This document shows positions 9,593 through 52,500 of a stretch of 64,000 bases of DNA, piece after piece. Below the pieces are notes generated by a model. The model did no database searches. It was given only the letters and a program-made list of their open reading frames with translations, and was not told the origin of the DNA. The stretch is from Somniosus microcephalus. Its lineage: Eukaryota. The stretch is taken from positions 261,516,001 to 261,580,000 of the forward strand of contig CM126204.1 of NCBI GenBank assembly GCA_052327205.1, given 5' to 3'. The position numbers and the translations under genes were made by a program. Within the stretch, counting starts at the first letter, position 1. Each line of letters begins with the position of its first letter.

Positions 9593-9703
9593 GTAAGCGA
9601 TTTCTCCTTTTTCATCTCTTTATTACTCTGGCAGCATCTTTTTCAGCTTCTCTCCTACTTCATACTACGAATGGATGATGAACCAGCAATTGAGTGGGGT
9701 TGA
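9593..9703 (+). CDS. CRB1: Alternative CRB1 C-terminus by read-through of the exon-11 donor (CRB1-B-type tail)
   Basis: In-frame continuation [36 protein letters not shown] closely resembles the human read-through tail as recalled (VSSLSFYVSLLFWQNLFQLLSYLILRMNDEPVVEWG..). AATAAA follows at 9724-9729. Confidence 0.88.
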
Positions 9704-21348: not shown

Positions 21349-21430
21349 ATGGAAAAACGACTGCTCCTGGGCTTTGGCTGGTTGTCGGTTACAGTACTTT
21401 TACTAAAGCGAGGATCTTTGCTCACACAAG
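21349..21430 (+). CDS. Nested CRB3-like gene, coding exon 1: signal peptide
   Basis: ATG (agaATGg, A at -3 and G at +4) opens MEKRLLLGFGWLSVTVLLLKRGSLLTQ: basic N-region, hydrophobic core, polar C-region. Donor caag|GTaaac in phase 1 matches the phase-1 acceptor at 29229. Confidence 0.72.
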
Positions 21431-22485
21431 GTAAACCTGTGCTTGCTAAAAATAAAAGGAAGGTGCAGAAATAGAAATGTATCTTTTCTCAGACTGTGCT
21501 GGATAAAACTAGCCCAGACCTAATGTGTTGCTATTTTTAGATTGGATAATTATATCTGAAGTCTGTCAAATCTAAATATGTAATGGATCATCGATGCAAT
21601 GCTGGGAACAAGGGCAGTTTTTATGACTGAAATGTTTAGTATGTTTAAAGATTGGATTGAGGTGATGCTTTTACTGTTAATGGATATGGTTTTATTGGTG
21701 CATGATGCATGAGTCAAGGAGACTAAATGTGAAGAATACAGAAAGGAAAAGATCAGTAGTTTTAGTGGTCAAAGAGAAAACAACCACTGTTGTCTTCAGT
21801 TTCCCAGTATAATCAAAATACTATTATTTCCTGAAGAGGAGTTTGTACTAAATAATAAACTTACCAGTTAATAACTGAGATAAAAAGTATACTGACATAA
21901 TATTTAAAATGACAATGCCACTCACAGTAAAATGTAAAAATTATAATACTCAAACTGGGATAAATGAGAGAAAATAGGAAGTACTATGATAATTGTAAAT
22001 GGGATTTCCTTTGGGAAAAGGTGATTCAGATACATCTGAAAACATGTCAGATCTGTGCATTAACCCTTTTTCTCATAAAGCAATTGAAATTAATTCTTCC
22101 AGGGGGTTCCAGGGTTGTAAAAAACTGACTCCATCACAGCTGTCAGAACATTGCATGACACATAAGAACCAAAATGGCAGTGGGACATAAACCTGCTTAA
22201 AGATGTTGTACGGTGCTGTATCAAAACTGTCCGCAGGCAGAACAATATAGTTGAGGAAATAAATGATCCAGAATTGATTTAATCTTGGGTGCCACTGCAT
22301 TGTTTGCACATACTTGTGAAACAATCGAATGCATAACTATGCCAATTCCCAATCTGAATATGTAACTATGCCAATTTAACTTCTAAGAAGTAATTTTATC
22401 ATACAGGTGTCTCTGGGGCAATGATTTACATTTTCTAGTTACTCATACGATATATAAGCCATCAGAACTTGTCTTTTGTGGTGCA

Positions 22486-22835
22486 TAAGAAATAGGAGCA
22501 GGAGTAGACCATTTGGCACTTCGAGCCTGTTCCGCCATTCAATAAGATCATGGCTGATCTTCTACCTCATCTTCACTTTCCTGCACTATCCCTATATCCC
22601 TTGATTCCCTTAATATTCAAAAATCTATTGATCTCTGTCTTGAATATACTCAACGACTGAGCCTCCACAGCCCTCGGGTAGAGAATTCCAAAGGTTCACC
22701 ACCCTCAGAGTGAAGAAATTTCTCCTCATCTCAGTTCTGAATGGCCGAGCCCTTATTCTGAGGCTGTGACCCCTGGTTCTAGACTCCCCAGCCAGGAGAA
22801 ACATCCTCCCTGCATCTACCCTGTCAAGCCCTGTT
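22486..22835 (-). mobile_element. CR1-clade LINE 3' end fragment
   Basis: Reverse complement of the tail at 25440-25799 (cataagaaataggagcaggagtagaccat..aagatcatggctgatct). Confidence 0.8.
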
Positions 22836-23299
22836 TTACTTCACATTTTGCCGCACTTCAGTTTCCTTCTTCCTCTGCTACACTTTGTTCTCATTTGGAT
22901 ACAGTTGTTTCGTAGTCTCTGCAACGTATTTTTGAAAGTATTTATCCTCTGTGCGCCTCTATTTGTGTATCCAGCCTAGTTCTCACCTCAACCCTCAAAA
23001 TGCACTCCCTAAACTTGAGACTCTCTGATGTACTCTTCCCTTTCTTTATCGCAAGCCTAACTTTATGCTCTACAACGCTATGATTGCCGTTTTGAAAATG
23101 CTCACTATAACCTCCAGTATCAAATCCAGTATCATTCCAGCCCATGTCGGCTCCCTACCATTTGAGACATGTTATGTCAGTATCAGTTGTCCCAAAATAT
23201 ATTTTCATTCTCATTATAGATCTCTGGAGAATTCAAATCACCAACAATTACATTTGATCTTTAACACTTCACGTATCTGAGTATTAAGTTCCAAATCTA

Positions 23300-23900
23300 G
23301 TATCTCTTCTTGGTATGGTGGGTCATAACAGATCCAAATTAGTTAATATTTTTCCTTTTTATGTCACTTACATTGATCCACAATAATTTCACTTTTTCTG
23401 AACCCAGTCTAGATTCCTCACTCTCCATGAACGTCACGTCTTCTTTCACATAAAAAGCCACAGCTCCCCTCAATTCATCTTTTCTATCTCTTTGGAGCAG
23501 TTTATATCTTTGTAAATTCATCACTATACAGCCCAGCAATTCATTACTTCCCCTTGTGGTTATTTTCTTATAATCTTCTTGTATCACTATGTACTCCTCC
23601 TCTCTCCTGTACCACAACATCTGGCTTCTGTTTCTTTTCTAGTTCTAGCATTCACTAATCCCTCCCCTCACCCCCCCCCCCCCCTTACTAATTTACCGCC
23701 CCCACTTCCCAATGTACCTTTCCTGCAAGGACATTAATAGCAGTCCAATTCAGGTGAATGCTGTCCCCTTTGAACAGGCTTCCCTCGCCCCAGATTGTGT
23801 CCCAATGCCCTAGGTATCTGAAACCTTCCCTTCTACGCCACTTTTCAAGCCACATGTTCACACATCTAATTTTTTTCACTCAGGCCATGGATTCAGCAGT
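23300..23900 (-). mobile_element. Degraded CR1-clade LINE fragment (ORF1 esterase-like region and start of endonuclease)
   Basis: WLEKWRRREGFRYLGHWDT..DSIHLNW (SGNH-like ORF1) and RDRKDELRGAVAFYVKE (APE-like) remnants. Confidence 0.6.
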
Positions 23901-24611
23901 ATTTCCGAGATTGTTACCCATGAGGTCTCTCTATTAAATGTAGCACCTTACTCCTCAAGCTCACCTTTAGACCTCCATCCTACTCTTTCCTAGGACACTG
24001 GTTCCTATATGAACCTTGACTCCCGGTTGTTTTCTCTCCGATTCCAAGAGTTTTTTTTTCCAGCTTCTGCACAACTTTCCCGATCTTGGATCCCAGGAAG
24101 GAATGTATCATTCACGATTGCCAGTAACCTTTTATGTGGCACCTTATCGAAATAGGAATCCCCCATAACTATCTTATGAATAATCTCACTTGTCTGGATG
24201 GGTATCACCTCACTCCATATAGCTTGTCCTGTGTTACAGACTGTAACAAGCCAACCTTTGAGCTCAGTATTTTTCAGCTAGAGCTACACATGTCTTTCAC
24301 CTGTACTCTTCCAAATCCAGGCAGAGTATACCATGCATGTTGCACACTTCACAAGTGTGGCTTCGGACCTTGCCATTCCTGTGTTCAGGGCTATAATGCT
24401 TCTTGGAGTTACTGTCCTTATGTTATGCTCTCTATGGCCTCTTGCTCCTCCTTACCAGCTTAACACAATGCATAAATGATTTTCATAACTTGACTTACCT
24501 TAATATACTAATTTAGCACACTCTTTTGAATAGCCTTCCCATTTTAATATAATAGATAATATAATTATCTTTAAAACTGCCTTGTGTACTTAATATATCA
24601 CCCCTCATCAA

Positions 24612-25799
24612 TTTTGGATTTCCAGAAGGCATTCGGTAAGGTGCCACATAAAAGGTTACTGCATAAGATAAGAGCTCACGGAAGTGGGGGTAATATATTA
24701 GCATGGATAGAGAATTGGCTAACTAATAGAAAGCAGAGTCGGGATAAATGGGTCATTTTCCAGTTGGCAAACGGTAACTAGTGGGATGCCACAGGGATCA
24801 GTGCTGGGGCCTGAATTATTTACAATCTACATTAATGACTTGGATGAAGGGACCGAGTGTAATGTAGCCAAGTTTGCGGATGATACAAAGATGGGTGGGA
24901 AAGCAAGTTGTGCAGAGGACTCAAAGAATCTGCAAAGGGATATAGACAGGCTAAGTGAGTGGGCAAACATTTGGCTGATGGAGTATAATGTGGGAAAGTG
25001 CGAGGTTATCCACTTTGGCAGGAAAAATAAAAAAGCAAACTATATTATTTAAATGGAAAGAGATCACAAAATGCTACAGTTCAGAGGGACCTGGGGGTCA
25101 TTGTGCATGAAACACAAAAAGTTAGCATGCAGGTACAGCAAGTAATCAAAAAGGCAAATGGAGTGTTGGCCTTTATTTCAAGAGGGTTGGAGTATAAAAG
25201 CAGGGAAGTCCTGCTACAACTGTACAGGGTATTGGTGAGACCACAGCTTGAGTACTGCGTACAGTTTTGGTCTCTTTATTTAAGAAAGGATATACTTGCA
25301 TTGGAGGCAGTTCAGAGACGATCCACTTGGTTAATTCCAGAGATGAGGGGGTTGACTTATGAGGAAAGGTTGAGCAGGCTGAGCCTATACTCATTGGAAT
25401 TTAGAAGAATGAGAGGTGATCTTATTGAAACATAAGATACTGAGGGGGCTCGACAAGGTAGATGCAGAGAGGATGTTTCCCCTCGTGCGGAAATCTAGAA
25501 CTCGGGGGCACAGTTTCAGAATAAAGGGGCGCCCTTTTAGAACTGAGATGAGGAGGAATTTCTTCTCTGAGGGTCGTAAATCAGTGGAATTCTCTGCCCG
25601 AAAGAGCTGTGGAGGCTGGGTCATTAAATACATTTAAGTTGGAGATAGACACATTTTTGCAAGATAAGGGAGTGAAGGGTTATGGGGAGTGGGCTGGGAA
25701 GTGGCTTTGAGCCCAAGATCAGCCATGATCTTATTGAATGGCGGAGCAGACTTGAGGGGCCAACTGGCCTATTCCTACTCCTATTTCTTATGTTCTTAT
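24612..25799 (+). mobile_element. 5'-truncated CR1-clade LINE (RT C-terminal part plus 3' tail)
   Basis: Frameshifted LDFQKAFGKVPHKRLL, PQGSVLGP, FADDTK, LVRPQLEYCVQFWS and RRMRGDLIE motifs. Ends in the tatgttctta-type tail. Confidence 0.92.
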
Positions 25800-28143
25800 A
25801 ATAGTGCAGTCAAAATGCTAACTGATTAACCCAAGGATTAAGATATATAAAATAATGCTAAATTATTAAGAAATTCATGCACATTGGGAACTGGTGGTTT
25901 ATTGAAAGTAAATCACTCATTTGCAGCAACATAACTCACAAGGCTTGTGGACTTCCTATACACCATCAGTCTCTAGTATATGTCCTCCATGAAACATCAA
26001 AACAGTTTTTAGGCATCTCTATGCACCCACTGAAATGTTCAGGAAACGTAAGGACAAGGATCTGTGCCACTTACTAATCTCCGATTGAGGGAGATTGGTC
26101 TCCACATTGGAAAGATATGTTCGTCACAAGTGTAGTAAAAGTGCATGAAACAGGCCCTTGTGTAACCTGTAACTGAGAGTTAAAACATTAACAGCACATC
26201 AAAGAAAGCCAAATAAAAAGGAGAGGCAATAGGAAGATTCCCTGAAAGTTTAAAGGAAATGAATCATTCATTCATCTTAATGCTGTGCAACACCCACTCA
26301 AGCTATATATGGAGAACTCTTAACAGGCAAAATAAAAAAAGTAAAGTTCTTTTATGATTAAACAAATCAAGAAAAATTTCAATGTTTTCCACTTTAACCA
26401 GAATTTAAAAAGGTACTTTACTGTATAATTTCCGGTCAAATAAGTGAAATATTCTTTAAAAAAAAATTACCTTGCAGGCCTAGAATACTTGAAGGGAGGA
26501 TTTCATTTTCAATGAGTATTAGGGTAGCACACTGTCTAACAGGCATTCCGACAGACACCACATTTATATCAATTCAGGTACAGCAAAAGACATGGTAATG
26601 TGTTGCTTGCATCAGCCTGAGTACAATGTACTATGAGGAACTCTGGGACAGCCAATGACTATGCGGATGCAGCTGCCCACACTCGCTCAGCTCCTGTGTA
26701 GGCCTAGGCACAAAGGAAGGCTGGGATTATTCAACTTTTCTCTCTGAAAACATACAATTTTTGAAGGGAAAAAAATCCAAACATAGAAATTGTTGCACTG
26801 CGCTGAATCCATTTATTAACCATTCTGCCATTAATAAGTAGATCTTGGCAGGACAGCTCTTTACCCTGTTAAGTCCTAAAATAAACTATGTTTCAGCTTT
26901 CAAAAAGGGATAGTGCAATTGCTAAAAATAATCTTTGAAACACACTTAATCAGACCCATGCTGAGTAGAACATGGGAATTTCTAGACAGGGTCCGTCTAG
27001 TTTGCCGTCTACCATCCTGGTAGTTGCACGATACAGCAAAAATGAAGATGTTGATTAATCATATGATGACCTGACTGACTGAATACTGCACTTTCAGATA
27101 AAATGAAGATACACGAATACCTCAGAGTGACTGAGGGTAACCTCATGTAACAGGTTGCATCATACACATCAACCCAGCAGCTAATCCTTCAATGACAAAT
27201 GCCAACACAACCAAACTAAGAAAGCTCCTTCCTTGCTCACAAAAGATCCAACTGAACATCAATAACTGACGCTCACGGCGCTGTTTCAGGAAATTGAGAA
27301 TAAGATCAGTCCTTCAATAACAGTTCTGCAGTGGAGTGCAATTAATTTTAAGGTGTACTGTCTTTAAGAAAAACAATGTTTGGAAAGCTTTCTCCTGTTT
27401 ATTGGAAAAGAGAAGACCCAGAAGAGGGGCTCATTCTGCTCCAACATTGTTATGTGTCACTAATGCAGTAACATATTTTGTCTTGGTTTACCTTACTGCA
27501 TCGTGTGTTTTCAATGAATCAAACAAAACAGGCTTGCCAGACATTTTTCCCATGAAGATGATATTCCTTGACAAGCTTACAAAGGCAGTGGTTAGTTTCT
27601 GTAGAACTGGCTTTCTAGGATTAGATCCTGGTATTGGTCTTCTTAACACCCATGTTTAAGCTTTGTCTACACTCAGCTGTTTTGCATTAGAGGGAGCCTT
27701 GATTTGCCCATCATTATTAGTTACTTTGCTGCATGGAACTAACACTTTTGTTCTGCATCTCAGCCTCTGCAGTCTTAGAGCAAGTTATGCCCCTATTGTA
27801 GGTCAGCTATACTTGAGCTCCTACAAAATAACGTGAATTGTATCAGTTCAGCTTTTTGCACCAGGTATTAGACCAATTGGAGATATTTTCAAACCATTTG
27901 GCTTTCCCATTGGCTGCAGTTGTAACTGATGTCAGGCCAGCATTATAAGCTAAGTTTGAAAAGACACCACTTAGTTCACTCGGCCACCTTCGGGTTTCTA
28001 ATATTAGTAAAGAGTTGGCAACCGCATTAGCTTTTCTTCAGTATTAGAATTTCACCAGCAGCTGAGGACCAATGAAGAGTTGGACGTTTGGTACTAATGC
28101 ATAGAGGGCAACCTTGCCTGACTAGGGGGCGGGGGCAGTAGAT

Positions 28144-28983
28144 TAGGCTGACCATACATCCCCATTTTCCAGGGACAGTCCCCGGATTAGGTACCGTGTC
28201 CCTGGGCAAACACCGTCTCCGGAAGTGTCCCCGGTTCAGGAAACTCATCCCCGAATACAGCCATATTCATTGGCCCACTGGTCGGCAGGAGTTGGGTAAA
28301 CACGAATGTTCAGAAACCCAGGGGGGAGCTTCTCGTCCTATTCACACCCGGTTTGAGCTCAGGAACGGAATCCAGGAGCCGGTTGAATGGAGGCGATGAT
28401 GACAGCCCCGACTTCCCACAATGCAGCGTGGTGGAGAATCGGCTCCAATTATAGCTCGAGCTGCCTTGCACTCTGGGAGATTGAGTCACCTGACCCCATG
28501 TTTTGGCCAATAGTGACTGGCCGGAGGGCGGAACCTTTAAAGTGTGCGGGAGAAGCCAAAGGCGCAGTGTGAGCTGGTGAGTGAGTGGATTTATTTTACC
28601 TCACAGCTCAGTAAGGAGCATTGTGTTGTTTTTTAAGGAATAAGGCAAGCTCTAAATTATCCCACCGGAAAGAGGATTCTGAAACCTTCTGAGACAGAGG
28701 GTGTTTCACACATTATATGGAAAATCTCAGTCTATTTGGAACAGATTTAAAATTGAGAAATTAAAAGTTAGGATATTCGGGGACGAGTATAGCTGGTACA
28801 GCACTATTACCAGAACAAAAGCAAGATTCAAGATTCGGTGTAAAGTGAAAATGGTGTTGTCTCTACGTGTGTTCCACTAGCAGAAGTTCATCTTGCCGGC
28901 CTTCTTGAAAAGCGTCCTGGCTACTTTGCTGTGCTCCCACCCTGTGTGTCCCCGCATTCACTTTAGAAAATATGGTCACCCTA
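28144..28983. mobile_element. Non-autonomous hAT MITE (Blackjack-like termini)
   Basis: TIRs TAGGCTGACCATA and TATGGTCACCCTA (12/13 match). 8-bp TSD CAGTAGAT / CAGTAGAC (7/8). Subterminal GTCCC/GGGAC repeats. No transposase ORF. Confidence 0.85.
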
Positions 28984-29228
28984 CAGTAGACCACTCTGGT
29001 TCACACACTTTCATTGTAAATGCAGGTATCTGCTACATCGGCGAAGCTCACTTCAGGGGTTAGCAGCCGCTCACTGGCGCAGAAGCATTTTAAATTATTT
29101 ACTGGGTAATCCTTCACTTTGACAGAGAAAAGTTGGTGATTTGTGTTTAGTATTGGGTAGATTTGTAACAAGTTACAAATTTTCAACATTTCAGTACCGT
29201 CTTCATGTTAGTGTTGGTTCCTTTACAG

Positions 29229-29281
29229 CGGTGAATGTAACAGATCCTACACAATCAACAAATGCTGATAGCACATCATCT
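29229..29281 (+). CDS. Nested CRB3-like gene, coding exon 2: short Ser/Thr-rich ectodomain with N-glycosylation sequon
   Basis: Acceptor gttggttcctttacAG|cg and donor tct|GTaagt; 53 nt, phase 1/0. Encodes (A)VNVTDPTQSTNADSTSS with an N-V-T sequon, like the mucin-like CRB3 ectodomain. Confidence 0.8.
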
Positions 29282-30592: not shown

Positions 30593-30814
30593 ACAAATCC
30601 GCCACCAAACAAAGTAAACATAGCAGCCATTGTGGCTCCCTGTGTGATTGGTGGGGTGATAGTTCTAGCTATCATTCTGACTTTTCTAATTCTAAAACTG
30701 CGTGAGAAACGTCAGACTGAAGGGAACTACAGCCCAAGCAACCAGGAGCAGACTGGATCTCGGATGGAAATGAACAATACCCTTAAACTGCCGCCAGAAG
30801 AGCGCCTTATCTGA
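30593..30814 (+). CDS. Nested CRB3-like gene, terminal coding exon: TM helix, FERM-binding motif and ERLI PDZ-binding tail
   Basis: Acceptor ttattttcacAG|aca, phase 0. Encodes [90 protein letters not shown] and [10 protein letters not shown] match human CRB3 rather than CRB1. Confidence 0.92.
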
Positions 30815-31055
30815 TATGTTCAGGCTCTGGGACGCACAAGACTTGGGGTGTTATGGTGGAAGGAGTAGGAGAAGTCAACAGATTCCAGGTATTCCCCCTG
30901 TTACTCAACAAGTTAGGAGGAAGAGTAACGTCACGAAGCTGTGCAACTCCAAGTGTATGTGTGTGCACGTGTTTTCTTTAAACCACGGCAGCTTCAAAGC
31001 TAACCCTGTGTGGGTTATCCTTAAACTGTTTAACCGTTTTGACTCTTGTCGACAG

Positions 31056-31271
31056 GATGTGGAAACCTGGACCTCAGAGATTCTGCTGTATATTGGGTTG
31101 GTCACCGTGGCGTTGTTGCTCCTTTTCTTTCTAGTCCTCACTGCCTCCGTTGTGACCCTGAATAAAAGAGCAACGCACGGGGCGTACAGCCCAAGCCAGC
31201 AGGAGAAGGAGGGATCGCGGGTGGAGATGTGGAACATGGTGCACCCACCCCAGGTGGAGAGACTTATCTGA
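31056..31271 (+). CDS. CRB1: CRB1 canonical terminal coding exon (exon 12 equivalent): TM plus FERM-binding and ERLI tail
   Basis: Acceptor gactcttgtcgacAG|gat, phase 0; 216 nt. Encodes [71 protein letters not shown], close to human [52 protein letters not shown]. Confidence 0.96.
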
Positions 31272-31679
31272 ATGAACCCTGAAGCTTGGCAAATCGTTTC
31301 TACGTATGGTGGTATATCATTGCTGTATGTACAGGCCGAGGATGCCATCCTATTCAGCGTGCCACAAGGAATGCTTTAGCTCGGATTGAAAGTTTTTAAA
31401 AGTGTAGTTTAAATCAATTGATTTGCCAAGTTGTTGCCTGAACAGTCCGAAATACCATTAAAAAATTGCTCCATTTTAATTCTCCCTTTCCGCAAAACTG
31501 TCAACAGAAAATGATTTACAATACAAGTATGTAATTCACGTTCTGAATATAGAACACGCACAAATACAGGAAGAAGATAAACCATTCAACTATACAGAGA
31601 TGGATGGCCCTAGCTTGGAGGTTTCAGAAAAGGTAAAATGCCCATGTAACTCCTCCTCTTCATTTAGGGAGCACTTTTA

Positions 31680-31685
31680 AATAAA
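31680..31685 (+). terminator. First canonical AATAAA after the CRB1 stop (candidate proximal polyA signal)
   Basis: AATAAA about 410 nt after the stop. Further AATAAA hexamers occur downstream (e.g. 38074-38079), so the real 3' end cannot be determined from sequence. Confidence 0.3.
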
Positions 31686-31802
31686 AACAAGATCATAGGC
31701 AATGGAGCTTTGAACTCCTCCCTGTGAAATATGGCAATAGAACCAATTGTTTATAAACATAGGAATAGTGCTAATAACTCTTATCCTTCCTTCTGTGATA
31801 GT

Positions 31803-32076
31803 GGCTTGGAGTTTGCGCTATGTTGCGATTTTTTTTCAGCACAAAAGATTGCGGAATTTCAAGCGCAGCTTATGTCCAGCGCAAATCAAGTTGCCGTGAT
31901 CTTTTGCACTAGTTTAAAAAACATTGCGCTAGAAGCTGACAGACTTTAAGTTTGGCGATAGGCAAATGAGTTTGAGCAGAAACTTGGAAAAAAAAAACAC
32001 GTCTCAAAACTAGCACAATTTTGGGCACAATTTGCACCCGGATTGCCGATTGCGCCCAAAGTGGAAACTCTACCCC
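31803..32076. mobile_element. Small MITE-like element downstream of the CRB1 stop
   Basis: Imperfect inverted ends ggcttggagtttgcgct and aagtggaaactctacccc; CpG-rich relative to the flanks. Confidence 0.45.
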
Positions 32077-33566
32077 AGTGTCTTTACTTCTGCACAATTC
32101 TAATCTTTAGTTTTGTAAACTGCTGAATCTAAACAAACTACAAGTACCATTTCTTGCTCATTATCACAACAAAGCAGTACACCGTAACCAATATATTTCA
32201 GCTGGACAAAATATCAGTCTCTTTATGTATGACTGTCTTTCCTAATGTGACCCAGTTATGTCACAAAGTTTCTAACACATGGCTAATGGCAGTTCTGGTC
32301 ACCACCAGGACCTAGAGCGACCACCTTAACCCTTTCCTTCTTTGGGAGACTCTGCTCACCAAAAGAAGTCAAACCCTTCCTTTTCTAATGAAGACAGAGG
32401 TGAAGCTCGGACAGAGTTTAATCCCGAGCCACAATTTTAATCCAAGCCGCCCGGCAGGAGCATTCCATGGAGCATAAAGTCGGGTGGGGTGTAAAACAGG
32501 CGTCCGACACCAACCCACCCTTTTTTCGCCGAGCCTCAGGTTAAAACCAGGGCTCTAGTCTCTTAAAAGAGATGGGAAAACTTCTTGCTTAAATATTTTT
32601 ACTAACAATATTACAAAGTAACTATGCCCAGAGAAGGTATTTTTTGAATCTGATGAAATAAACTGTTCTAGTTACGCAAACTATTTCATTAGTTTCAAAC
32701 TAATTCTTTAAAGAAATCAAAGCTCGGTTAATATTATAGGAATAAAGCTTTTGTGAAGTGAAGGGTTTCTACCTGGAATGTTAATCCAGATTTTCTCTTT
32801 TCAGATGCTGTTTATTTCCAGCATTTTCTGTTCTTATTTCAGATTCCTAGTGTTTACCATTAGTCATTCTTTTTAACTCTGAATTTTTACTGACACCAGT
32901 TTTAACCTATATTGGGACAGATCTGAAGAAAAGTACAATTAATAGGGCAAAAAGGAAATTGCTGTCTAATGAATGGAATGAGGATAATTTTTGCCAGATT
33001 ATGTATTTTAAACATGTATTTTCAAAATCTCCTCTCACCACTTTACCTCTTTCTGTACTGAATATACATTTCAAATTAAATATATGTTAATCATAACACA
33101 AACAAAATAAATATTTTCAGTACTCGACTAATGTTAGCATTATACAGAAAATCAGTTAAAGAATGTTTATCAATTGCTAATATTTTCTGATTTGGATTTT
33201 TTTAAATGTTATTTTCTACTCTTATGCTGAAATGTTATTGTCGTTCTCAAAGGGTTAAAGGTCAACTGCCCACACTCAGATTTTTTCAGCAGCAGCAGAT
33301 GTTGGTGATAGTAAATGCCAAGAACAAATGAACATGGAGCGTGGGATCAATGTATCAATTAGAGTGTATATATTTAGAGTATAATAGAGTCATTTATAGT
33401 CAGGATTAATTCCAAAGGTGCGTGTCTGTGTAAGTTTGACTGCCATTGCCTCAGAGTGAGAAGGCAACAGTGCTGATGGTATAACACAGCTATTAAAACA
33501 AATAACAAGGCAAAACTAACTAATGATGTATAGCAGTCAAATATGATTTCCAACTTGTGCAAATTA

Positions 33567-40549: not shown

Positions 40550-42747
40550 TAGGGTTGCAAAGGGGTGGAAAGTTTCCGGTAAATTTCCAGAAATTTTCCA
40601 CGGGAAGTTTAGCTTGGGAATTTTGCCCAAAAAAGCATATGCTAGCATAATATTGTTTTTTTTGTATTTCTTTCTTTTTTTCCCCCACAGGTCCTCTCTT
40701 AATAATTAAGATTCCATCTCTGTTAGTAATTTTAAGGAATTTCTTAATCAATATATGTTTATCTTCTTACTTGACTTGTTTTAATAATTACAAGTTTTGT
40801 GTGTGACTGTGAACAAGTGTGTCCTGATTGGTTGGATGAGTGGATGAGCGATTAGCTCCCTCTATTTGTAATATTTGCATATCGAATTGTGATTGGCCTG
40901 CAGGCATCTGTAAGACTGCTATAGTTTTTTTTAAGATCCAGGTTAGGGGACCTGAGGGAAGTCATTTTGTTTTCTGCTGATGTGATGATGCAGTAAGTAA
41001 ATCAGACTTTATACCAAATAAACCAGTTACTTGTTGAACTCTGTTGTCCTTCAATTTAAAATATACAAATTAATACACTATTGGTGATGTAGCATCGTGT
41101 GTGTACAGGTCATGCTTCCATCACATGGAGCATCAGCAAAAATGTACTCACCCTGTTGCAATCATGCTGATCGACCGCAGTTCGACACAGAGATGAATGC
41201 CCTTTATTTCTCTGCATAGAACAATGCCACATTTACCGTCGGATGTGTGGAAGCATTTTACCCCAGGCATTAAAGATGGAAAGACTGTGTACATGTGCAA
41301 ACACTGTAGAAAGCCATATGTAAAGAATGCCACAAAGATGCAGCAGCATTTATCCAAATGCAACAACTTCACTCATATTACGTCTATTGGGTGCGCAGCT
41401 CATGGGCTTAACCTGCTCAAGGACATCATGGGTTTGAGAACCATGGAAGCACTGTACAAGAGAGCCAAGCAAGTTGTTAAGTATGTCAGGGGAAAACAGG
41501 TAGTTGCAGCAACCTACAACTCCAAGCAAATGACAAAGAACAAGAACACCACACTGAAGCTGCCCAACAACACTAGATGGGGTGGTGTTGTCATAATGTA
41601 CAACAGCCTTCTGGAGGGTAAGGAGTCGCTGCAAGAAATGGCAATATCCCAGTCTGGGGATATGGAAACCACCATCAAGAAAATACTGCTGGATGATGTG
41701 TTTTGGGAGAGAGTGGTTAGCAGCCTTAAACTACTCTCACCAGTAGCATCTGCAATTGCTCAGATTGAAGGAGATGACGCTGTCTTGTCAGATGTTCTCA
41801 GGCTTTTTACTGATTTAAAAGAACAAATCAGCATTGCCCTACCCACATCCCTGCTGCTCAAAGCAGAGGAGAAGGCAATTGTTCAATTCATACAGACGCG
41901 TCAAGAAATTTGTGTCAAGCCGATTCATGCTGCAGCATACATGCTGGACCCAAAGCATGTTGGGAGACCAAAACTTTCTGGAGAACAGATCAACAGCGCT
42001 TACAGTGTGATTTCTACCCCCTCACACCATCTCAATCTGGATGTGGGCAAAGTTCTGGGAAGTCTGGCAAAGTTCTCTACCAAGCAAGGTCTTTGGAATG
42101 GGGATGGGATATGGGAATCATGCAAGCATATCAGTGCACATACCTGGTGGAAGGGACTTTGTGCATCTGAGGCCCTGTCACCTATTGCATCGGTGATACT
42201 CCAAATCCCACCTTCATCAGCGGCCTCTGAACGAAACTGGTCACTTTTTGGGAATACGCATACAAAGGTGCGCAACAGGCTGACTAACAAGAGAGTGGAG
42301 AAACTGGTGGCTATCCAGGCGAACCTACAACTTATTGAGCCAGATACAGAAGTGTCCACCACACAGCTAGACACTGACACAGAGGAGGAAATGGACACGT
42401 CAGAGCCAGAGAATCAGGAGGAGCAATGAGGAGTAGAAGAATCAGAAGACTCATGAGTAGAAGACTCAAAGGGACAAAATAAGGACAAATTACAGGCTAA
42501 ATAAGCTGACGCTCTTTTTATTTTATTTTAGATGGGTCTTTTTTGTGGGGGTTCAATAAAGTTCAAAATTATAACCTAAATAAAGTTTTGAAAGCCTGTT
42601 TTTATTTGTATGGAACAGTATGTCTATTTTGAGGACAAATATAAGGGTCAGAGACAAAAACCATCAGTGTGCAAAAAAACTCAAAATTCCCATAAATTCC
42701 CATGGAAAGTTTCCTCTTTTAAAAATTCCCAGAATTTTGCAACCCTA
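40550..42747 (+). mobile_element. hAT DNA transposon, internally deleted
   Basis: Perfect 12-bp TIRs TAGGGTTGCAAA (40550-40561) and TTTGCAACCCTA (42736-42747). Perfect 8-bp TSD GCTGAGAT (40542-40549 and 42748-42755). Subterminal GGAAA/TTTCC repeats. Confidence 0.95.
41197..42429 (+). CDS. hAT transposase-derived ORF (BED zinc finger, CxxH, C-terminal hAT dimerisation domain); N-terminal catalytic segment missing
   Basis: SDVWKHF..CKHC..H..C BED finger joined directly to CAAHGLNL. Also TRW, WWK and SSAASERNWS..KVRNRL motifs. 410 aa with no stop. Confidence 0.85.
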   Translation: MPFISLHRTMPHLPSDVWKHFTPGIKDGKTVYMCKHCRKPYVKNATKMQQHLSKCNNFTHITSIGCAAHGLNLLKDIMGLRTMEALYKRAKQVVKYVRGKQVVAATYNSKQMTKNKNTTLKLPNNTRWGGVVIMYNSLLEGKESLQEMAISQSGDMETTIKKILLDDVFWERVVSSLKLLSPVASAIAQIEGDDAVLSDVLRLFTDLKEQISIALPTSLLLKAEEKAIVQFIQTRQEICVKPIHAAAYMLDPKHVGRPKLSGEQINSAYSVISTPSHHLNLDVGKVLGSLAKFSTKQGLWNGDGIWESCKHISAHTWWKGLCASEALSPIASVILQIPPSSAASERNWSLFGNTHTKVRNRLTNKRVEKLVAIQANLQLIEPDTEVSTTQLDTDTEEEMDTSEPENQEEQ

Positions 42748-44140: not shown

Positions 44141-44146
44141 TTTATT
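44141..44146 (-). terminator. Candidate DENND1B polyadenylation signal (3' UTR about 3.6 kb, 47708 to ~44120)
   Basis: AATAAA on the minus strand followed by a U/GU-rich tract (gatgttttgttt). The region 44150-47700 is AT-rich with no recognisable repeats, as expected for a 3' UTR. Confidence 0.45.
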
Positions 44147-47100
44147 GTTTGGCAAAGGCAAAGCACAGCTCTGCAAAGTCTGAAGAATAACTTTATTCAG
44201 CCAATTTTGTACAATTTCTCATATTATACAGCAGCTTGGACAACCATCAAAAGAAGATTAACCAAAGACATCGAGTATCCCAACCGGTGATACCCGTACG
44301 TACCCGTTTTGGTTGAAACGGTCACTGGGTTTCATTTTAAATAGATATATTCTGAATTGGTGGAGTGCTCATACAACTGTCCTAAAACGTTTTATTAAGA
44401 ATTTAATATACCCTGCAACAGCTTAATCTGGCAGTTGGTACATCAAAACCTGGCCGATTTGTATATGCACATTCAGCTACACAGCTAAAAATCCAATTTT
44501 CTTGCAGTACATTTTTGAATCACAAAGGGAAGTAATTCCACTGATAGGATAAGATGCTATGGGATGTCGCTTTTATTGTGTCAATCTGGATAAAAATTGA
44601 TGACTTTTACAAATAAGCTTCCCTAAGGAATGCTGAAAATAAAATTGGCACAAACAGCAGCTCTACAATGACTTGGTGCTTTAAAAGCCAAATTACTGGA
44701 TTTTCCAGTGGACTCAAAGTATACAACTTGTTTGTTTTTTGTTTAAGAAAAAGCCAAACTCAGTTGGGATATACAGTTAAATGGCATTACTATAGAACAG
44801 AACCTAAGCAACACGCTGGTTGATATTTACAACAATTGGACAGTTTAAGACAACTTAAAAGTATTAGTTAACAGTTGAACTGTTTGGTCTCTGGTTATTC
44901 ATGGACAATTGTGTTAACTAGATGCTTAAATGAACAATTAGATAAACATTTGCATAAATTAGACATGCAAGTAATTTACAGGATGAACTGCACATGTATA
45001 TTTTTAAGAGTTGGACAATCATAGCAATGAGTAACATTCACTTTTTAAAATGAACACGTAAATGGAACAAATGCTTAAGACATAGGCTGTTCTATCAGTT
45101 TACCAACATATTGCATATAGAAAAAGTGGACTCTAAATTATGGAAGTGATACAAACTATGGAACTTTGTAAATTAGAGCGGTTGCAAGAATATGGTGGAC
45201 TACTACTCAAATAAGACATTAAAGACTTAGATGGAAAAAGAAAAACAATGATAAAACGAGAAAACTAATTCCACAGTGATCTTTATTCACAATGACCTCT
45301 TGACCTTGTTACATAACTTTGCAGTCGACATGGTGCAAGTTTTAATGGTTAACGCAACTTATATGCACTTTAGGTGCTTCTCTGTACCCTAGATTAAAAT
45401 TTATTATTAAAAAAACTTGGTGCAACAATCTAACTTGAAAGCAACATCTGGAATACAAACAATTTGTAAATAGAATTCATATTGCACAGAATTATTCTAA
45501 AAAAGATAACATGCCTTCTGGGCGCTGAAAGAGGCTGCATTTTAAATTATTTTCAATATACAAACCAAAGACAACAATAAGAGTAAGTTAATTTGACAGG
45601 AGAGCATTTAAAACAAAAACTCAGATCAATTTGAGTTTTTGGGAAATCTGAGGTATATCAAATAGGATTATCCTGCTGATTTTCTGTTTTGATATACAGC
45701 CTGTGTAATGTGACAGCAATATTGCACCTTGATACATCAGTGCACATGCCATCTTTTCATATACATTACACTTTTAGTTTCTGCTCAAGTTGTTCCAGTT
45801 CCCAAAATAAAATTAAGTACCATCATTTTCATTAAGGCACGTGTTCCAGCCTTTGCCGCAGCGATGTATTAGGTATTTTAAATGCCTAAAAAAATTAGAA
45901 ATATTTATATATGTATCTCTGATGAACTAACTAATGAAGTCCTTTAACAACATCCAGTTAAGAGGGGGAAAAAAATAGGACAGAGGAACATGGGAGCAAA
46001 AGTATACCACATGTCCCCAGTAACAGAGTGCAAGACGGTGCCTTATTTAAAGTAATCATCAAGTAACCAAATGTTATCTACAGATTTAAAAGTATTAAAC
46101 ATTAGTGTAGCACAAGTTACTGGAATCATCTGGTTTGTGTAGATGTTGTCATCTATCCTAATATTCATTTACCCTGTTTGTACCCTTTAAAGTACCATTA
46201 ATTAAACAGGAGTACCAACAGGATGTGCTTCTTCCCCCTTATATCCCAGTGTTGGTTGCCATTTACATTACACCAGTCCTATTACACAATCACATTCTAA
46301 AAACACAGCAATATTTCACGAAACATTTACAGCATTTGTGCACATTTGTTCAATACAAAAACACACTTATACCAAGAGCACATAGAAAATTGATAACACT
46401 TAAATCCATATCAAAACGTTAACAATTGTATTTTATCGCAGGCCAGAACTCCTGAGGTCTCAAGAAAGCCGATTTCATGTCTTGTAAAAACTGTTTCATT
46501 CCTAAAATATCACTCAGAGGTTCAAGTGAGCCATCATTAATGGTGTCGAGGGAAAACAAAAACAATTCAACTTATTTCGGGAAGACATGGATTGAATACT
46601 CATTGGTACTAACAGATTGCTGATTAAATAAAATGCAGCATTATCTCCATAGGAGATTCTTTTTCTCCCTTTATTAACCACAGTTTGCATCGTCATTCCT
46701 GATAATTATTGCCTAATGAACTGATTTCAAGCATTTTCAGGTTTACACTATGTAAGCACTAAAGTATCTTATGCTGTGACACTGTTAAACAATTGCATGA
46801 AGTGATTTAGAAAGATGCTACATGTACATGATGATTTCAGAGGACTACGATTTCTGTAATTTTTAAGGCAGTACCTTTGATCATTTGGCTTTAATTTACT
46901 GCATATTTCATTTATAGACATGGGTAAAACATAGATAACAGGAAAACACAGATAATGGTAAAACACAGATAAAATGTAAATGGAGTGTTTAAATAATTCA
47001 GAGTATCCAGCTTATAGATTTATTAAAATGGAACAGGAAGGGTTGAGGAGGGTTTGAAATGTAAGGAATTGCAGAGAATAATGACCACTGTTCCCTCCTC

Positions 47101-47708
47101 AAGTGCTTGTAAACACAGACAATCCCACCTGCTAATTCTCATCCACTCTTCATTGTACAAGGTAACATATATTTTATATATAGCATGCAACAATTTTACT
47201 ATCACAAAGCATTTGCCTTGTTAGCCTGATTTGGTTGGAACAATGCAGGGAAATCTCACTGACCCGGAAAGAAAATCTCAGCCTCCCATTGTGATGTAGA
47301 AACATAAGTTTGTTCTTTGTCCCTCAGAGTTAAAATTTATCTTTTTCACCTGAATAGAACTTTAAATGAAATGGCTTCTGTTGTGTACAGACATACCTGA
47401 TTGCTGAATTATCAATACACTACTCCATTCTAGGCAACAACTTGTACTCAACTGTTTAGCACAAATGTATAAATCAGAAGTAATTTTAATTGTCTGTTTT
47501 AGCAGTGTGTGTTAAAGTTTAAATTTGAAAGAAAATCTGTATTTGATTTTGCATAAATCAGTAAAGCAGTGCATTTTTACTTCTTCTACACTTAGAAATG
47601 TTCAGGAACTCCTCCCTTTCCTGCAGTCTAACACTCAATCTTTCAATTATTAAATAATTCTCTGAATTTGCCCCAGCTTAAAATACTGCTCCACTTTCAC
47701 ACTTTGTT

Positions 47709-48257
47709 CTAAGTGTTGGTAGTGGAAGCACCAACACTGGAAATAGTGTGACCGGTTTCAATTCTGGAACATAAACAGTCGATCTCTTTGAGTAGGTCTA
47801 TTTCACCTGTGGGTTCTAGCAATTCAGCCTCAACAGCGTCTTTCTCCCAAGGGATTAAAACGGATGGGTATTTTGGTGTATTTTGACACTGCTCTTCGTA
47901 GGTACCGTCTCCACTGGTTAGTGTTTGCTTTGGCTCCTTTAGTTTGGCTGAAATCTTTTTCTTCTGCTTTGATTCTTCACTGGAGGCAAGGGTTGCCACT
48001 GAAGCTTTAAAAGACGAGTCACTATTGAGTTTCGGAAAATTTGTCAACTCTTCAACAAACACACAGGAGTTTTCAGAAGATGTCATTTCAAAGGTAACCG
48101 GACATTCAGAAAAATAACAAAATGATTTCCTTGGAGATGGGGGAAGGGGCTTTCTATGGACAACAGTATCATCTTGTCCCAGGTGCCAACTCAGATGATC
48201 ACCATACCCTACACCAAGTTCAGCCAGGTTTCCCTCACTAGGAGTATTGAACTTGTT
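47709..48257 (-). CDS. DENND1B: DENND1B terminal coding exon
   Basis: Minus-strand acceptor ttattttgttAG|aac, phase 0; 549 nt. Encodes NKFNTPSEGNLAELGVGYGDHLSWHLGQDDTVVHRKPLPPSPRK...IPWEKD...EIDLLKEIDCLC...NT*, resembling human DENND1B as recalled (NKSNAPSENNL..WNLGQDD..LPPSPRK..VPWEKE). CRB1-DENND1B tail-to-tail synteny matches human. Confidence 0.9.
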   Translation of the reverse strand, partial: NKFNTPSEGNLAELGVGYGDHLSWHLGQDDTVVHRKPLPPSPRKSFCYFSECPVTFEMTSSENSCVFVEELTNFPKLNSDSSFKASVATLASSEESKQKKKISAKLKEPKQTLTSGDGTYEEQCQNTPKYPSVLIPWEKDAVEAELLEPTGEIDLLKEIDCLCSRIETGHTISSVGASTTNT

Positions 48258-48756
48258 CTAACAAAATAAGAAGAAACACGTTAAGTATGAGATCTCCCAA
48301 AACTTTAATGATTAAAAAAAGCAATTCATTGTCAAATATGAAAGGCACATCTACAATAAATCTCCTATACAAAATAGCTATTTCTTATATCATCTTCCGT
48401 TATTTAGCATTTTCAAATTCATTAAGATTTAACGAGGCAACAATTACTTTTGACTTTTCTGCACTTTTTCTTTCCAAATTAGCTCTCAACAGCATTGTGT
48501 TGGGACAGGATGAGAGCCACAACACAGATGCCTCCAGGGATTACATTAGTGGCATTCTTTGGTCAACCAACTAAGGTGTATGCATAAAAAGATTAACAAA
48601 CTGACTTAGACTAAGAAATTTCAGTGTCTAGGGAAAGCAGCCTCAATCGAGATGATTTTTTTGAATTCAAATAGCTAGTGAACTTGAGTCACATTAGCTT
48701 TGATGTTTTAACTTGTGCACTATCACGATCCTAGAACTTTAATACAGAGTACTCAC

Positions 48757-48973
48757 CCCAGCTTTATAACTGATATCATCCATTGATTTGAAGAAATCCA
48801 GGCTCTTTGCACCACACAGCTTTCCTTGATCTGAACTGTGTGTACTGAGGGTATCAAGGATCTCTCCCAACAAGTCCATCTGGCCTGGAGATTGTGACTC
48901 TAGTTCCATCTGTTCAGAATCATCACTGTCATCAATATAGGCACATACTTCTCCACTGTCTTCCGATGATACC
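48757..48973 (-). CDS. DENND1B: DENND1B penultimate coding exon
   Basis: Acceptor ttcttAG|g and donor ggg|GTgagt; 217 nt, phase 2/0. Encodes VSSEDSGEVCAYIDDSDDSE..MDLLGEILDTLSTHSSDQGKLCGAKSLDFFKSMDDISYKAG. The MDLLGEILDTLSTHSSDQGKL..AKSLDFF block is characteristic of DENND1B. Confidence 0.93.
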
Positions 48974-51229
48974 CTAAGAAATATGAATACTTTAAGTAGC
49001 TGAGCTCTGCAAGATGCAAGTCATACTTAGTTTGCTTAACCAGCGCCACTACCTGCATGAACAAAATCAGTCATTTATTACTTTTAAAGGTTTATTAAAA
49101 GCTACAATTTTTACTTAAAATTGTTGATGTTGTAACACAATTTAAAGTGCTTAATATAAGTTACATGAAACTTAAAATAAGTATGAAGGATAATTTATGC
49201 TGAGTGAAAGGTTAGCAGAAAGGTCAAGTGATGCACCTGATCAAATCACCTAGACTACTTCTCTTAGTTACTGTATCTCTATGAAATAAGGACAGTGCAA
49301 ACAGTTTTATTCCACGTGTAATCTGGGAAGTGTAAATATGAAATTCAAACACATTAAAACAAATTCAAATATTTTTAAAAGTATGTTAGAAATGCAATGG
49401 ATCACTGCTAATAAAAAGATAATACAAATACTTCTGGTTATAAGTTGACAAAAAGTCATTTGTGACACCATCACTTGTGAGTTCTGAAGTTGTTCTAGAC
49501 TTGGTCCTTGGGTAAACCACATAAATTGCTAAACTGTTGAGGCTATTAACATGGAAGAAGCTGGCCCCAGCTTATTCCAGAAAGGCACTCCACTTTGTTC
49601 AGGAGAAGCCAATCACCAGGTTGAGAGACGAGGAGATGACAATTGAAATAACACGGTTTCCCATAACATTCGTAGCACATCAAATAGCTATTAATCAATG
49701 GTGACGTCATAGGACAATGGAAAATGTGCAAGTAATTACTATGTGGAAAGATTAAGCTCCAATGAAGAGCTTTCGAAAAGGCATCATCAGTACCAGGACC
49801 CAGATGTAAGCTGCCCTTGGATCCTGGATGCCAACTGAAATAGGGGGAGGGAAAGGGAGGGGAGGGATGGAAGGAGGTAAAATATTCTGATTATATTACT
49901 TTGAATCTTTCTGGTAGAAACGAGACCATGGTCATGGTCCTTTCCCAATAGCCTCTGTATGCATCAGCACTGATGAATATCCCTTTGCTTAACTAGATCT
50001 GATCATCCTACCTGCAGGGGCATTGGGTTGTAGAGTTATATTAAGCAGAAAAGGAAGAATATCAGCACCCAGTGATGTCTACCCCTGCAGGTTCCATTAG
50101 TAAGCAAGGCTGGCTGGTCAATCATCAACATGTCCTGGAAGATGCAGGCCTACCTGACTCAAGTATTGAATTACTGATCCTGCCATAATAGTTTGATTTG
50201 GTTCTGAGCTTGTAATACCAGATTTGTCATATTGGCGACCTTAACCTCAAAAACAACCAACTTGCCTCGTGCCCCTAACCTCAGACGACAGTCACTTGGC
50301 AGTCATTAGACAACTGACAAATGCAGGTATCAGCCACTGCCAGGCAGACAGAAGGTACCAAGAGCTCATCACCGGGGCATGGTGCATAGGCAACTCTCCA
50401 TAAAATATGCAACTGCATTGTCACCATCCTCCTGACCACAGCAGAGGCACACATCATATCCCATCAGACAGTAGTAACACCAGTAAGAGGTATGGAGCAT
50501 CTTCAGCAGTAGTTGCAGCCAAATCATGGTAGTCACCAAGCCCTCCAGCAAGTCTTAGATTTTACTCATCACCTTTGCAATACACATCTGCCTTCAATGT
50601 GGTGGAAGAACTTACAAAGGTTTGCTTGCCAGGTGCCAGCCACCTTTACCTAAATGTCTAGGGTAGCACATTCACACTTATTTTTTATGTTTTCCAATAT
50701 TGTATAGATTTGCTTACACGTGGGATTGAAGTGTAACCTCTTCTTCTCCCCACTTTCTCTGGTTTGCTTCTAAGCAATGGTGAAAACTGCTATGCAAGAT
50801 TATAAAGCAATTTGACTAAATAGGACCACAATTAAAGTCCAAGTACCACAGAATAACTGCAAGAAATATTTTTGACCTTTGTTAATGGAATACTAAATGC
50901 AAATCCTGACCAAAGTCACCATGCATCCACACAATCAGTAAATATTATGCTTAAAAATAATAAATTCAAATCATGCTGTTTTTGTTGTATTTAGTCGACA
51001 AAATTACCAAGATACAATCATTTTTTTTGTATAGGCACATTAAAAAGGGCTACACACTATCAGGATGGTTTTTTTTTTATTTGATGGGATATCAAAAACA
51101 ATCATATTGCAGTGGGCAGGAATGCAATACTTTTCCCTACTTTTAACATCTAGTATCAGTATTACCCATATTCATAATCAAGTAAACCACAGATAGAGGG
51201 TTGTACTGTAATACAGTATTGTTCTGACC

Positions 51230-51330
51230 CAGTTCTGACGAAGGGTCATCGACCTGAAACGTTAACTGTTTCTCTCGCCACAGATGCTGCCTGACCTGCT
51301 GAGTATTTCCAGCATTTTCTGTTTTTATTT
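51230..51330 (+). mobile_element. Penelope-like tail fragment carrying a minimal type-I hammerhead ribozyme motif (51230-51268)
   Basis: cagtt-CTGACGA-agggtc(atc)gacct-GAAA-cgtt-aactg, followed by the same GATGCTGCCTGACCTGCTGAG..TTCCAGCATTTTCTG tail seen at 40307-40400. Confidence 0.7.
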
Positions 51331-52426
51331 ATGATAGATGGTAATTATCCGTAACTCTGCTCCAATAATGTGCCTTAGCACCAGCCATAGAAAAGAACCT
51401 CCTGTTGCACAAAACATCCTTACGAGCTCCATGACTGAGTTTGTCTATTAGTACATACACAAAATGGTTCTCTGAAAATAATGAATACTAACAATTAAAT
51501 AATATGTGATTCTTTACATCTCTCATTCATACTATTGTGAATAAACTAAACTGCATTATGTTGTCATTCAGCTATCAAAGATGAACACATGCACACAATA
51601 TGCCAATCCAAATTAACGTTAAAAAAAATCATGCACCTTTCACAAGTGCACATAGTTTGATATTTTGAAACCAGTAGAGGTCAGCATTGATGCACACATT
51701 TTTGATACCGTACATCTATTATCCAATATGATCCTCGCATCAGAAAAGAAATATAATTAAGAGCAGAGGTGTTATCAGAAAGTTTGGATTTTTCCCAAAT
51801 CTTATGATTACTTCTAACATAAAACTTATGCATCCAGTATACTTTTTCTGTTGTAAATATTTTTGCAAGATGAATTAAAATCTGCAATTGAAAATACTGT
51901 ATTACACTACAAGCAAACAATTATACACAGCCAACAGTTTAAATATCTTAATATTCTGATTGTAATGCCTGCAAACATCTAACTTAGCAACAGGTTTCCA
52001 CAGGCCAACCTGGCATTGATTTACTGTTTACAAGAAGCTGAGTTTGAAAAGAAAATGGTACGGTAAGACATGAAATAGTATATGGAGAGGTAACATGTGC
52101 CTATGCAAATAAATTATTCATCCAATGAGCCACAAACATAATTCAGCATTAAAGTAGAGGAGTTTGCAAAATATATGATACTGCCCTTCCTAAAATATTA
52201 TATTAACTACTATACTCATTTATCGGAAAGCATAATTGAACATTGGATATACAGCATTAGCAGTAAGGGATACATTGCACATAGAACACTTGCCACTTAA
52301 GTATACAATTATCAGTTTCGACCTTTTGTTAAAAACTTAGCTGAGAACTGCCTGTCTAAAAGGTATCAGGAATGACAACCAAGTGTAAAACAGAAGACAC
52401 AAGAAACAATTGAAATGATTCCTTAC

Positions 52427-52500
52427 TTGCTTGCTCGGTCTGCCTCATCATCATCCAGTGGGGAAACAGCACCAGTGTGTGATGATCGTTGAGGGTGAAC
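52427..52500 (-). CDS. DENND1B: DENND1B internal coding exon
   Basis: Acceptor gtttgcctttAG|gtt and donor gcaa|GTaagg; 74 nt, phase 0/2, joins the 48973 exon in frame. Encodes VHPQRSSHTGAVSPLDDDEADRASK (human ..DDDDIERASK|LSSED). Confidence 0.82.

Follow-up and report, generated by a model that had tools for sequence, protein, structure and literature searches.

The last intron of CRB1 in Somniosus microcephalus (NCBI GenBank assembly GCA_052327205.1, contig CM126204.1) contains a small Crumbs unit of the CRB3 type, made of three coding exons that join into a single open frame of 118 amino acids. The existence of this nested unit is confirmed: all its elements were found where the original prediction, drawn from the letters alone, had put them, inside the last intron of CRB1 and before the CRB1 exon for the transmembrane segment (TM) and tail. 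It is a fourth Crumbs unit, located on the DENND1B segment, and not a relocated CRB3. Probably it has stayed in place since the common ancestor of the CRB1 and CRB3 loci, which would make it the ohnolog of CRB3, its sister by genome duplication. The window, meaning the whole 64,000-nucleotide stretch analysed (G000:C3:261516001-261580000, in a genome of 6.4 Gb), contains the 3´ ends of CRB1 (plus strand) and of a DENND1 gene (minus strand), which face each other, and its closest named proteins in a similarity search come from sharks.

The nested unit, its protein and its transcript

The first exon (coordinates of all features in Table 1) encodes a signal peptide, called on hydrophobicity alone, and its N-terminus matches the NCBI models P0004, P0005, P0006, P0008 and P0186. 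The second encodes a stalk rich in serine, threonine and proline (the S/T exon), and the third a TM and a tail. The protein shows the features of the Crumbs family, with one TM followed by a 37-residue tail that carries the FERM-binding Y10 and E16 and ends in the PDZ-binding ERLI, positions and motif roles being those given in excerpts of PMC4359734. The tail is similar to a solved structure (PDB 4wsi_X, E 2e-9), and the ESM Atlas matches comprise one Crumbs cluster, the rest being generic single-pass membrane clusters. The unit belongs with the short Crumbs forms: a scan of P0004 found no EGF or laminin-G family, the protein has a signal peptide and a short S/T stalk, and the three coding exons follow phases 1 and then 0, as in shark CRB3 on contig C31. 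In trees, its TM and tail join CRB3 and not CRB1 or CRB2. It is not CRB3 proper, for the stand-alone place beside DENND1C is occupied by the C31 gene and the unit lies inside CRB1 beside DENND1B. Within the 21-kb intron, strict scanning for exons returned two signal-peptide and three S/T candidates, the true exons included. A possible splice acceptor lies 15 nt 5´ of the unit ATG (window 21330-21349); it is used in the Scyliorhinus model P0184, making a non-coding first exon possible.

A start within the intron would give a small type I membrane protein, with its signal peptide cleaved and its stalk glycosylated. To judge from its motifs, the tail would recruit the PALS1/PATJ/PAR6 apical complex through FERM-binding (Y10, E16) and PDZ binding (ERLI), as CRB3 does, the Crumbs tail and PALS1 being a textbook pair.

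Two tails of different types stand side by side at this locus. The unit carries tail Q, of the CRB2/CRB3 type (RQTEG ... PPEERLI), and the CRB1 last exon carries tail R, of the CRB1 type (RATxG ... EMWN ... ERLI). The original prediction overlooked that the unit has a tail exon of its own, of a type unlike that of CRB1, and that the same pair occurs at CRB2. The last intron of CRB1 extends from 9593 to 31055 (21.5 kb), and the tail Q stop is separated from the CRB1 last exon by 241 nt. Since the EGF donor, the tail Q acceptor and the tail R acceptor are all in phase 0, long CRB1 is in frame with either tail. Long shark CRB1 models finish in tail R, and the long CRB1 transcript would bypass tail Q and splice to tail R.

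The splice join 29281->30593, from the S/T exon to the tail Q exon, was read in contigs of three of four runs (X2, X4 and X6, from three organisms and three studies), while the contig of the fourth, X1, begins at 30593. All three upstream joins read into 30593 come from the S/T exon and none from the EGF exon (0/3). The X1 and X4 contigs continue without any joint past the CRB1 last exon, so that this exon serves as 3´ untranslated region (UTR) in the nested transcript. The join between exons 1 and 2 rests on NCBI protein models and not on a direct read, the loose contig ends of 64, 86 and 43 letters having been read over 30 letters. Both tails lie on one X9 contig (30428-31865), which may come from the source sample, and contigs of two relatives likewise span them, ruling out the assembly artefact that the original prediction had named as a danger. 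The raw RNA runs X14 and X15 gave almost no cover of the unit exons, their mapping being swamped by repeats, and do not inform on other tissues.

A homologue search with a 73-residue query found 18 homologues among 20 candidates. Five of them, in Mustelus, Carcharodon, Narcine, Mobula and Callorhinchus (proteins of 118-121 amino acids), are 88-97% identical, and the other 13, mostly annotated as crumbs homolog 3a, are 58-64% identical. The unit is therefore not confined to one species, such highly similar proteins being present in sharks, rays and a chimaera; among the homologues found, clear full-length orthologues of it occur in chondrichthyans only. The ab initio model P0184 of Scyliorhinus fuses the last EGF exon of CRB1 to the unit, and in Hypanus the contigs that bear the unit and CRB1 are of equal size; together these indicate that the nested location is shared. 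In a table of the relatives' differences covering 40 of 62 rows, all seven differences listed for tail Q are synonymous (6/6 in X4, 1/1 in X1), and those listed for tail R (31056-31271) include three replacement changes in each of the same two relatives.

The separate CRB3 gene and the paired tails at CRB2

A genome-wide tail search gave five matches among seven candidates, two at CRB1, one on C31 and two on contig C23; no fourth Crumbs locus was seen among the 7 and 12 scored candidates, both numbers being lower bounds. The C31 gene is CRB3, with exons of 61, 50 and 195 nt in phases 1 and 0, a protein of 101 amino acids, and a TM and tail 83-91% identical to named shark crumbs homolog 3a. It adjoins a DENND1 gene tail-to-tail. 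Since CRB3 exists separately, next to a third DENND1 gene and with matching phases, the nested unit is an extra Crumbs unit, as the original prediction had held when it set this reading against a translocated CRB3; the comparison of intron phases that went with that claim gave identity (1 and 0). The positions of the human CRB genes (CRB1 beside DENND1B, CRB2 beside DENND1A, CRB3 beside DENND1C) and the intron phases of human CRB3 are taken as background.

DENN genes stand tail-to-tail with all three Crumbs loci, the DENN exon 120-153 is present at each, and their paralogy can be followed exon by exon. The upstream DENN exon at the CRB1 locus (contig C3) scores best to human DENND1B (64.1 bits versus 55.4 for DENND1A), the DENN exon on C23 is letter for letter a DENND1A stretch, and the DENND1 gene on C31 is, by exclusion, DENND1C. 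Equal-scoring DENN exon matches on C27 and C839 suggest an uncollapsed haplotig.

At the DNA level, exons 1 and 2 of the unit resemble neither the CRB3 nor the CRB2 locus, and the tail exons alone match. The last 37 codons of the unit agree with CRB2 tail Q in 72% of nucleotides and 25/37 amino acids, and with shark CRB3 in 62% and 23/37. No EGF remnants were found in the 200 kb around the C31 CRB3, where both motif matches are CA repeats. A supposed tail R remnant 5.7 kb 3´ of this gene (tblastn E 0.21) was rejected as a repeat with stops resembling a short interspersed element, and a mitochondrial-carrier gene about 0.57 Mb away was not adjacent and was not used. The original prediction saw CRB3 as the ohnolog which lost the EGF and laminin-G exons; it missed that a CRB1-type tail would have been lost as well.

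The C23 gene, CRB2, is a full EGF/laminin-G gene. Its tail Q exon, of clear CRB2 type, lies 11.6 kb past the last EGF exon, and an intact tail R exon follows 1039 nt past the Q stop, so the order Q then R is identical at CRB1 and CRB2. A Callorhinchus protein (P0108) matches CRB2 tail R at 68%, P0099 and P0175 are of the same kind, and the long form of CRB2 ends in Q (P0188). CRB2 also has a hydrophobic read-through past its last EGF donor (C23 ~29094580-29094698, minus strand) that resembles the ending of CRB1-B. An ending of this type exists at CRB1 too (Table 1), where its terminal part is similar to the CRB1-B antigen peptide given in the available portion of PMC7335077, and it may be older than the duplications.

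Origin of the nested unit

Trees were built from TM and tail (66-67 columns) in three versions: 37 rows with five unnamed outgroup rows, which did not fall on one side of a branch; 38 rows with named echinoderm and nemertean outgroups, under two models; and 27 rows for approximately unbiased (AU) tests, with Latimeria crb3a, the long Megalops row, all unnamed rows and several redundant ones removed. The groups for the AU tests were fixed beforehand, though the 37-row and 38-row trees had already been seen. The R tails of CRB1 and CRB2 form a clade with support of 100/96 (37 rows), 96/89 and 96/90 (38 rows) and 98/93 (27 rows), and all Q tails form another with 96/93, 99/93 and 96/92, and 89/90, respectively. 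Within Q, the unit and CRB3 group together (99/98; 97/85 and 92/81; 96/95), and in the 38-row trees the unit lies apart from the whole of CRB3, sequences of sharks and of bony vertebrates included (92/92 and 87/82). The AU tests rejected the grouping of CRB2-Q with CRB2-R (p-AU 0.0058) and that of the unit with CRB1-R (p-AU 4.6e-6); a recent duplicate of the CRB1 tail, which the original prediction had recognised as one of the outcomes fatal to it, is thereby discarded. Because tails group by type and not by locus, and local duplication is rejected, the pair existed already when CRB1 and CRB2 separated. In the invertebrate tails among the hits, RATxG as in R occurs together with EMxNxxKxPPEERLI as in Q, as would be expected if both tails derive from one ancestral exon.

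In the portions of Lamb 2021 (PMC8040251) available to us, DENND1A is assigned to quadruplicate A, DENND1B to C and DENND1C to D, with (A,B) parted from (C,D) at the first duplication (1R). The shape of the Q tree, in which CRB2 separates first and the CRB1 unit and CRB3 then stay together, agrees with (A,B),(C,D), and the unit lies on the segment sister to that of CRB3 (DENND1B/1C, quadruplicates C/D). The first duplication preceded the lamprey split and the second followed it, according to excerpts of Simakov 2020 (PMC7269912). The short form is seen only on the C and D segments, which places its origin before the second duplication; it may be older still and have been lost at CRB2. The original prediction had given the short form to the vertebrate locus before any duplication; its claim is supported only for the second duplication, as no short-form exons were found at CRB2 (see below) and the short form is traced to the CRB1/CRB3 ancestor and not to a single locus before 1R. 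On that earliest short form, and on an internal promoter for it, the original prediction goes further than the data.

The following course of events would account for these observations. A tandem duplication of the TM/tail exon, Q then R, would have come first, ahead of the first whole-genome duplication. Signal-peptide and stalk exons in the last intron would have been feeding into Q no later than the CRB1/CRB3 ancestor, ahead of the second duplication, giving a short form alongside the long one. After the second duplication, CRB3 would have retained the short form only, shark CRB1 both forms, mammalian CRB1 the long form on R, and CRB2 the long form on Q, with a tail R still intact in cartilaginous fish. 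The view of the unit as an ancient CRB3 ohnolog is probably correct, as the best trees place it as sister to CRB3 and fit (A,B),(C,D), and the opposing consideration is a chondrichthyan CRB3 copy, discussed below.

Several points weigh against inheritance in place from this ancestor. The runs X1-X6 are taken as RNA by guess only, and the start within the intron, the exon 1-exon 2 join, the protein and its binding are inferred. A strict scan of the 11.6-kb CRB2 intron and of the gap between the CRB2 tails found no short-form exon, while it recovered the known S/T exons here and on C31; a loose scan at CRB2 gave five and two candidates at background level, none with a sequon, against 20 and 15 in control regions. 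No cyclostome or amphioxus sequence was present among the hits that could be named. The support from bony fish consists of automatic gene models and not of inspected DNA, and in the 38-row tree the Megalops Q-type segment sits on a very long branch within CRB3 and not with the unit. Grouping the unit with chondrichthyan CRB3 or with bony CRB3 was not rejected (p-AU 0.44 for each), and grouping it with CRB2-Q was borderline (p-AU 0.052). Furthermore, the CRB3 clade without the unit has support of only 54/10 (27 rows) and 51/68 (37 rows), and the 27-row Q clade stands at 89/90. The best trees agree with a separation of the unit from CRB3 before sharks and bony fish parted, a later date not being rejected by the AU tests, and 66 columns cannot date the split between the unit and CRB3.

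It could be supposed that a CRB3 copy was inserted into the last intron of CRB1, or gene-converted onto a native Q exon there, in an early cartilaginous fish. This agrees with the AU result for chondrichthyan CRB3, with the near-identical TM start of the unit and shark CRB3, and with the restriction of clear full-length orthologues to chondrichthyans. However, the landing site would have to coincide with the position that CRB2's own Q exon occupies, the best trees place the unit outside all CRB3, and its last 37 codons are nearer to CRB2-Q than to shark CRB3, so that such a copy seems unlikely. It is also difficult to reconcile with teleosts, in which four automatic gene models put a Q-type exon onto the CRB1 R exon (Megalops P0189, Synaphobranchus P0104, Anguilla P0220 and Periophthalmus P0258). 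The Megalops model, of 181 amino acids, has N-terminal hydrophobic (signal-peptide-like) and S/T-rich segments. These models suggest that the Q-R tandem may still be present, in diverged form, in teleosts, which an insertion confined to chondrichthyans would leave unexplained. One of the four is named 'Crumbs homolog 3b', and some teleost crb3b annotations may therefore correspond to a crb1-nested exon. In the coelacanth, Latimeria crumbs homolog 3a (P0284) and Latimeria CRB1 (P0025) are both on contigs of 172,207,807 bases, and the former falls inside CRB3 in the 38-row tree; it could represent the nested unit, or else CRB3 after a chromosome fusion.

An independent recruitment, in which only the Q exon is ancestral and the CRB1 and CRB3 loci each gained their signal-peptide and stalk exons, would explain why tblastn and blastn detect no similarity between the first two exons of the unit and those of CRB3. 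The tail exon dictates phase 0, and phase 1 commonly follows a signal peptide. A short CRB3-like protein is also known from C. elegans (excerpts of PMC4359734). We nevertheless consider two such gains highly improbable, given that the sister loci share the three-exon layout, the phases and the size of exon 2 (53 versus 50 nt, with the sequon first), that their TM segments group, and that two origins are costlier than one. Equally little probability attaches, and if anything slightly less, to the Q exon being mainly an alternative last exon of long CRB1, a swap of tails with the short form as a minor by-product: the shared phase 0 would keep either tail in frame and the long form of CRB2 does use Q, but every join into 30593 comes from the S/T exon, and the long shark CRB1 models finish in R. 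An assembly artefact or a pseudogene can be dismissed for practical purposes in view of the spanning contigs, the spliced form in three organisms, the conservation from chimaera to ray, and the wholly synonymous differences listed for tail Q. Inheritance in place from the CRB1/CRB3 ancestor is thus the reading that we retain.

Neighbouring features and known Crumbs forms

The laminin-G and EGF frame of CRB1 in the window has a paralogous CRB2 exon on C23 (43% identity). Between CRB1 and DENND1B lies a hAT transposase-like frame of 410 amino acids (41197-42429, plus strand) with a BED finger and a dimerisation domain. A Ty3/Gypsy-type long terminal repeat (LTR) retrotransposon occupies a DENND1B intron (53798-57874, minus strand), with gag, protease, reverse transcriptase, RNase H and integrase spread over three frames; a related LTR element occurs in the DENND1 genes on C3 (~261.73 Mb) and C31 (~38.78 Mb).

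Table 1. Features of the nested unit, CRB1, DENND1B and the CRB2 tail R exon (window positions unless a contig is given).
Feature	Position	Strand	Remarks
CRB1 open frame, laminin-G + EGF exon	379..1353	+	Open reading frame; Pfam Laminin_G_2 + EGF; exact splice ends unmapped
CRB1 last EGF exon	9466..9592	+	Phase-0 donor, start of last intron
CRB1-B-type hydrophobic ending, read-through of EGF donor	9593..9703	+	Third ending; CRB2 has one too
Unit exon 1, ATG + predicted signal peptide	21349..21430	+	82 nt, GT donor, phase 1
Unit exon 2, S/T/P-rich stalk	29229..29281	+	53 nt, AG/GTAAGT, one N-glycosylation sequon, phase 1 to 0
Unit exon 3, TM + 37-aa tail of CRB2/CRB3 type (tail Q)	30593..30814	+	Y10, E16, ERLI-stop intact
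Nested transcript 3´ UTR, unspliced through CRB1 last exon	30815..32372	+	X1 contig 30593-32372; end as in the contig of a single relative, not from poly(A) mapping
CRB1 last exon, TM + CRB1-type tail (tail R)	31056..31271	+	84% to Hypanus CRB1, 73% to Latimeria CRB1
DENND1B last coding exon, convergent neighbour	47709..48257	-	Identity from upstream same-strand DENN exons
DENND1B penultimate exon	48757..48973	-	63-64% to an exon of the C31 DENND1 gene, next to CRB3
Likely DENND1B exon, acceptor at 52500	52427..52500	-	Splice sites + open frame; identity inferred from position
CRB2 tail R exon, intact	G000:C23:29081644-29081862 (L003:240-458)	-	CRB1 type; phase-0 acceptor

Compared with vertebrate CRB3 (the ERLI form, represented by the C31 gene), the unit likewise encodes a short protein (118 versus 101 amino acids) with signal peptide, S/T stalk, TM and a 37-residue tail with Y10, E16 and ERLI, from three coding exons in phases 1 and 0, and it likewise has a DENND1 gene tail-to-tail. 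It differs in that its TM and tail are ~62% identical, in its location inside the last intron of CRB1 beside DENND1B, in a 3´ UTR that spans the last exon of CRB1, and in coexisting with a real CRB3. The proteins named 'protein crumbs homolog 3-like' by NCBI in Mustelus, Carcharodon, Narcine, Mobula and Hypanus, together with 'crumbs homolog 3' of Callorhinchus, are the same protein (88-97%); the 'crumbs homolog 3-like' names are automatic and silent on nesting, tail pairs and ohnology. The protein itself is therefore already known, in NCBI under an automatic name, and what appears to be new is the nested arrangement and the twin tails.

Three Crumbs genes are counted in mammals and five in zebrafish, where a short form of Crb2b keeps part of the ectodomain (excerpts of PMC11129452). 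This form and the mammalian CRB1 isoforms A, B and C (excerpts of PMC7335077) resemble the shark locus in having alternative endings and an internal start, such as is proposed for the nested unit, but they keep EGF/laminin-G exons, and neither a second ERLI tail exon nor loss of the whole ectodomain is described for them in those excerpts. The tail of mammalian CRB1-B is given there as devoid of Crumbs motifs, and a read-through ending of that type exists in shark CRB1. The same excerpts deal with a long-read survey of mouse Crb1, in which 15 isoforms were catalogued, and make no mention of a nested short unit, though they do not list all the isoforms. CRB-3 of C. elegans, as described in parts of PMC4359734, is similarly a Crumbs protein of ~100 amino acids lacking a large ectodomain, but it comes from a stand-alone gene, has no predicted signal peptide and ends in EGLI. 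The available portions of PMC9006659 and PMC3100342 contain nothing on the origin of CRB3. In a literature search that left most subscription journals uncovered, no account of the nested unit or of twin tails was found, and none of how CRB3 arose.

A more sweeping reading can be put forward tentatively, with the odds somewhat against it. One pre-duplication Crumbs gene would have made both long and short proteins with three endings (Q, R and the CRB1-B type), of which mammalian CRB1, CRB2 and CRB3 would be fixed subsets. CRB3 would be a liberated internal isoform, the CRB1 tail would not be orthologous to the tails of CRB2 and CRB3, and sharks, perhaps with eels and the coelacanth, would keep the undivided CRB1 arrangement.

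CRB3 is the main epithelial Crumbs of mammals and, unlike CRB1 and CRB2, lacks the whole ectodomain. The shark locus offers a direct route to such a gene, through an internal short isoform of a long gene that would have been freed by genome duplication and complementary exon loss, and it would illustrate clearly how isoforms can be divided among duplicates. It brings together an eye-disease gene, CRB1, and a cell-polarity gene of the CRB3 type. The tail of CRB1, on one side, and those of CRB2 and CRB3, on the other, would descend from two tandem exons that predate the duplications, a point that matters wherever CRB1 and CRB2 are compared in retinal disease or Crumbs trees are drawn from tails only.

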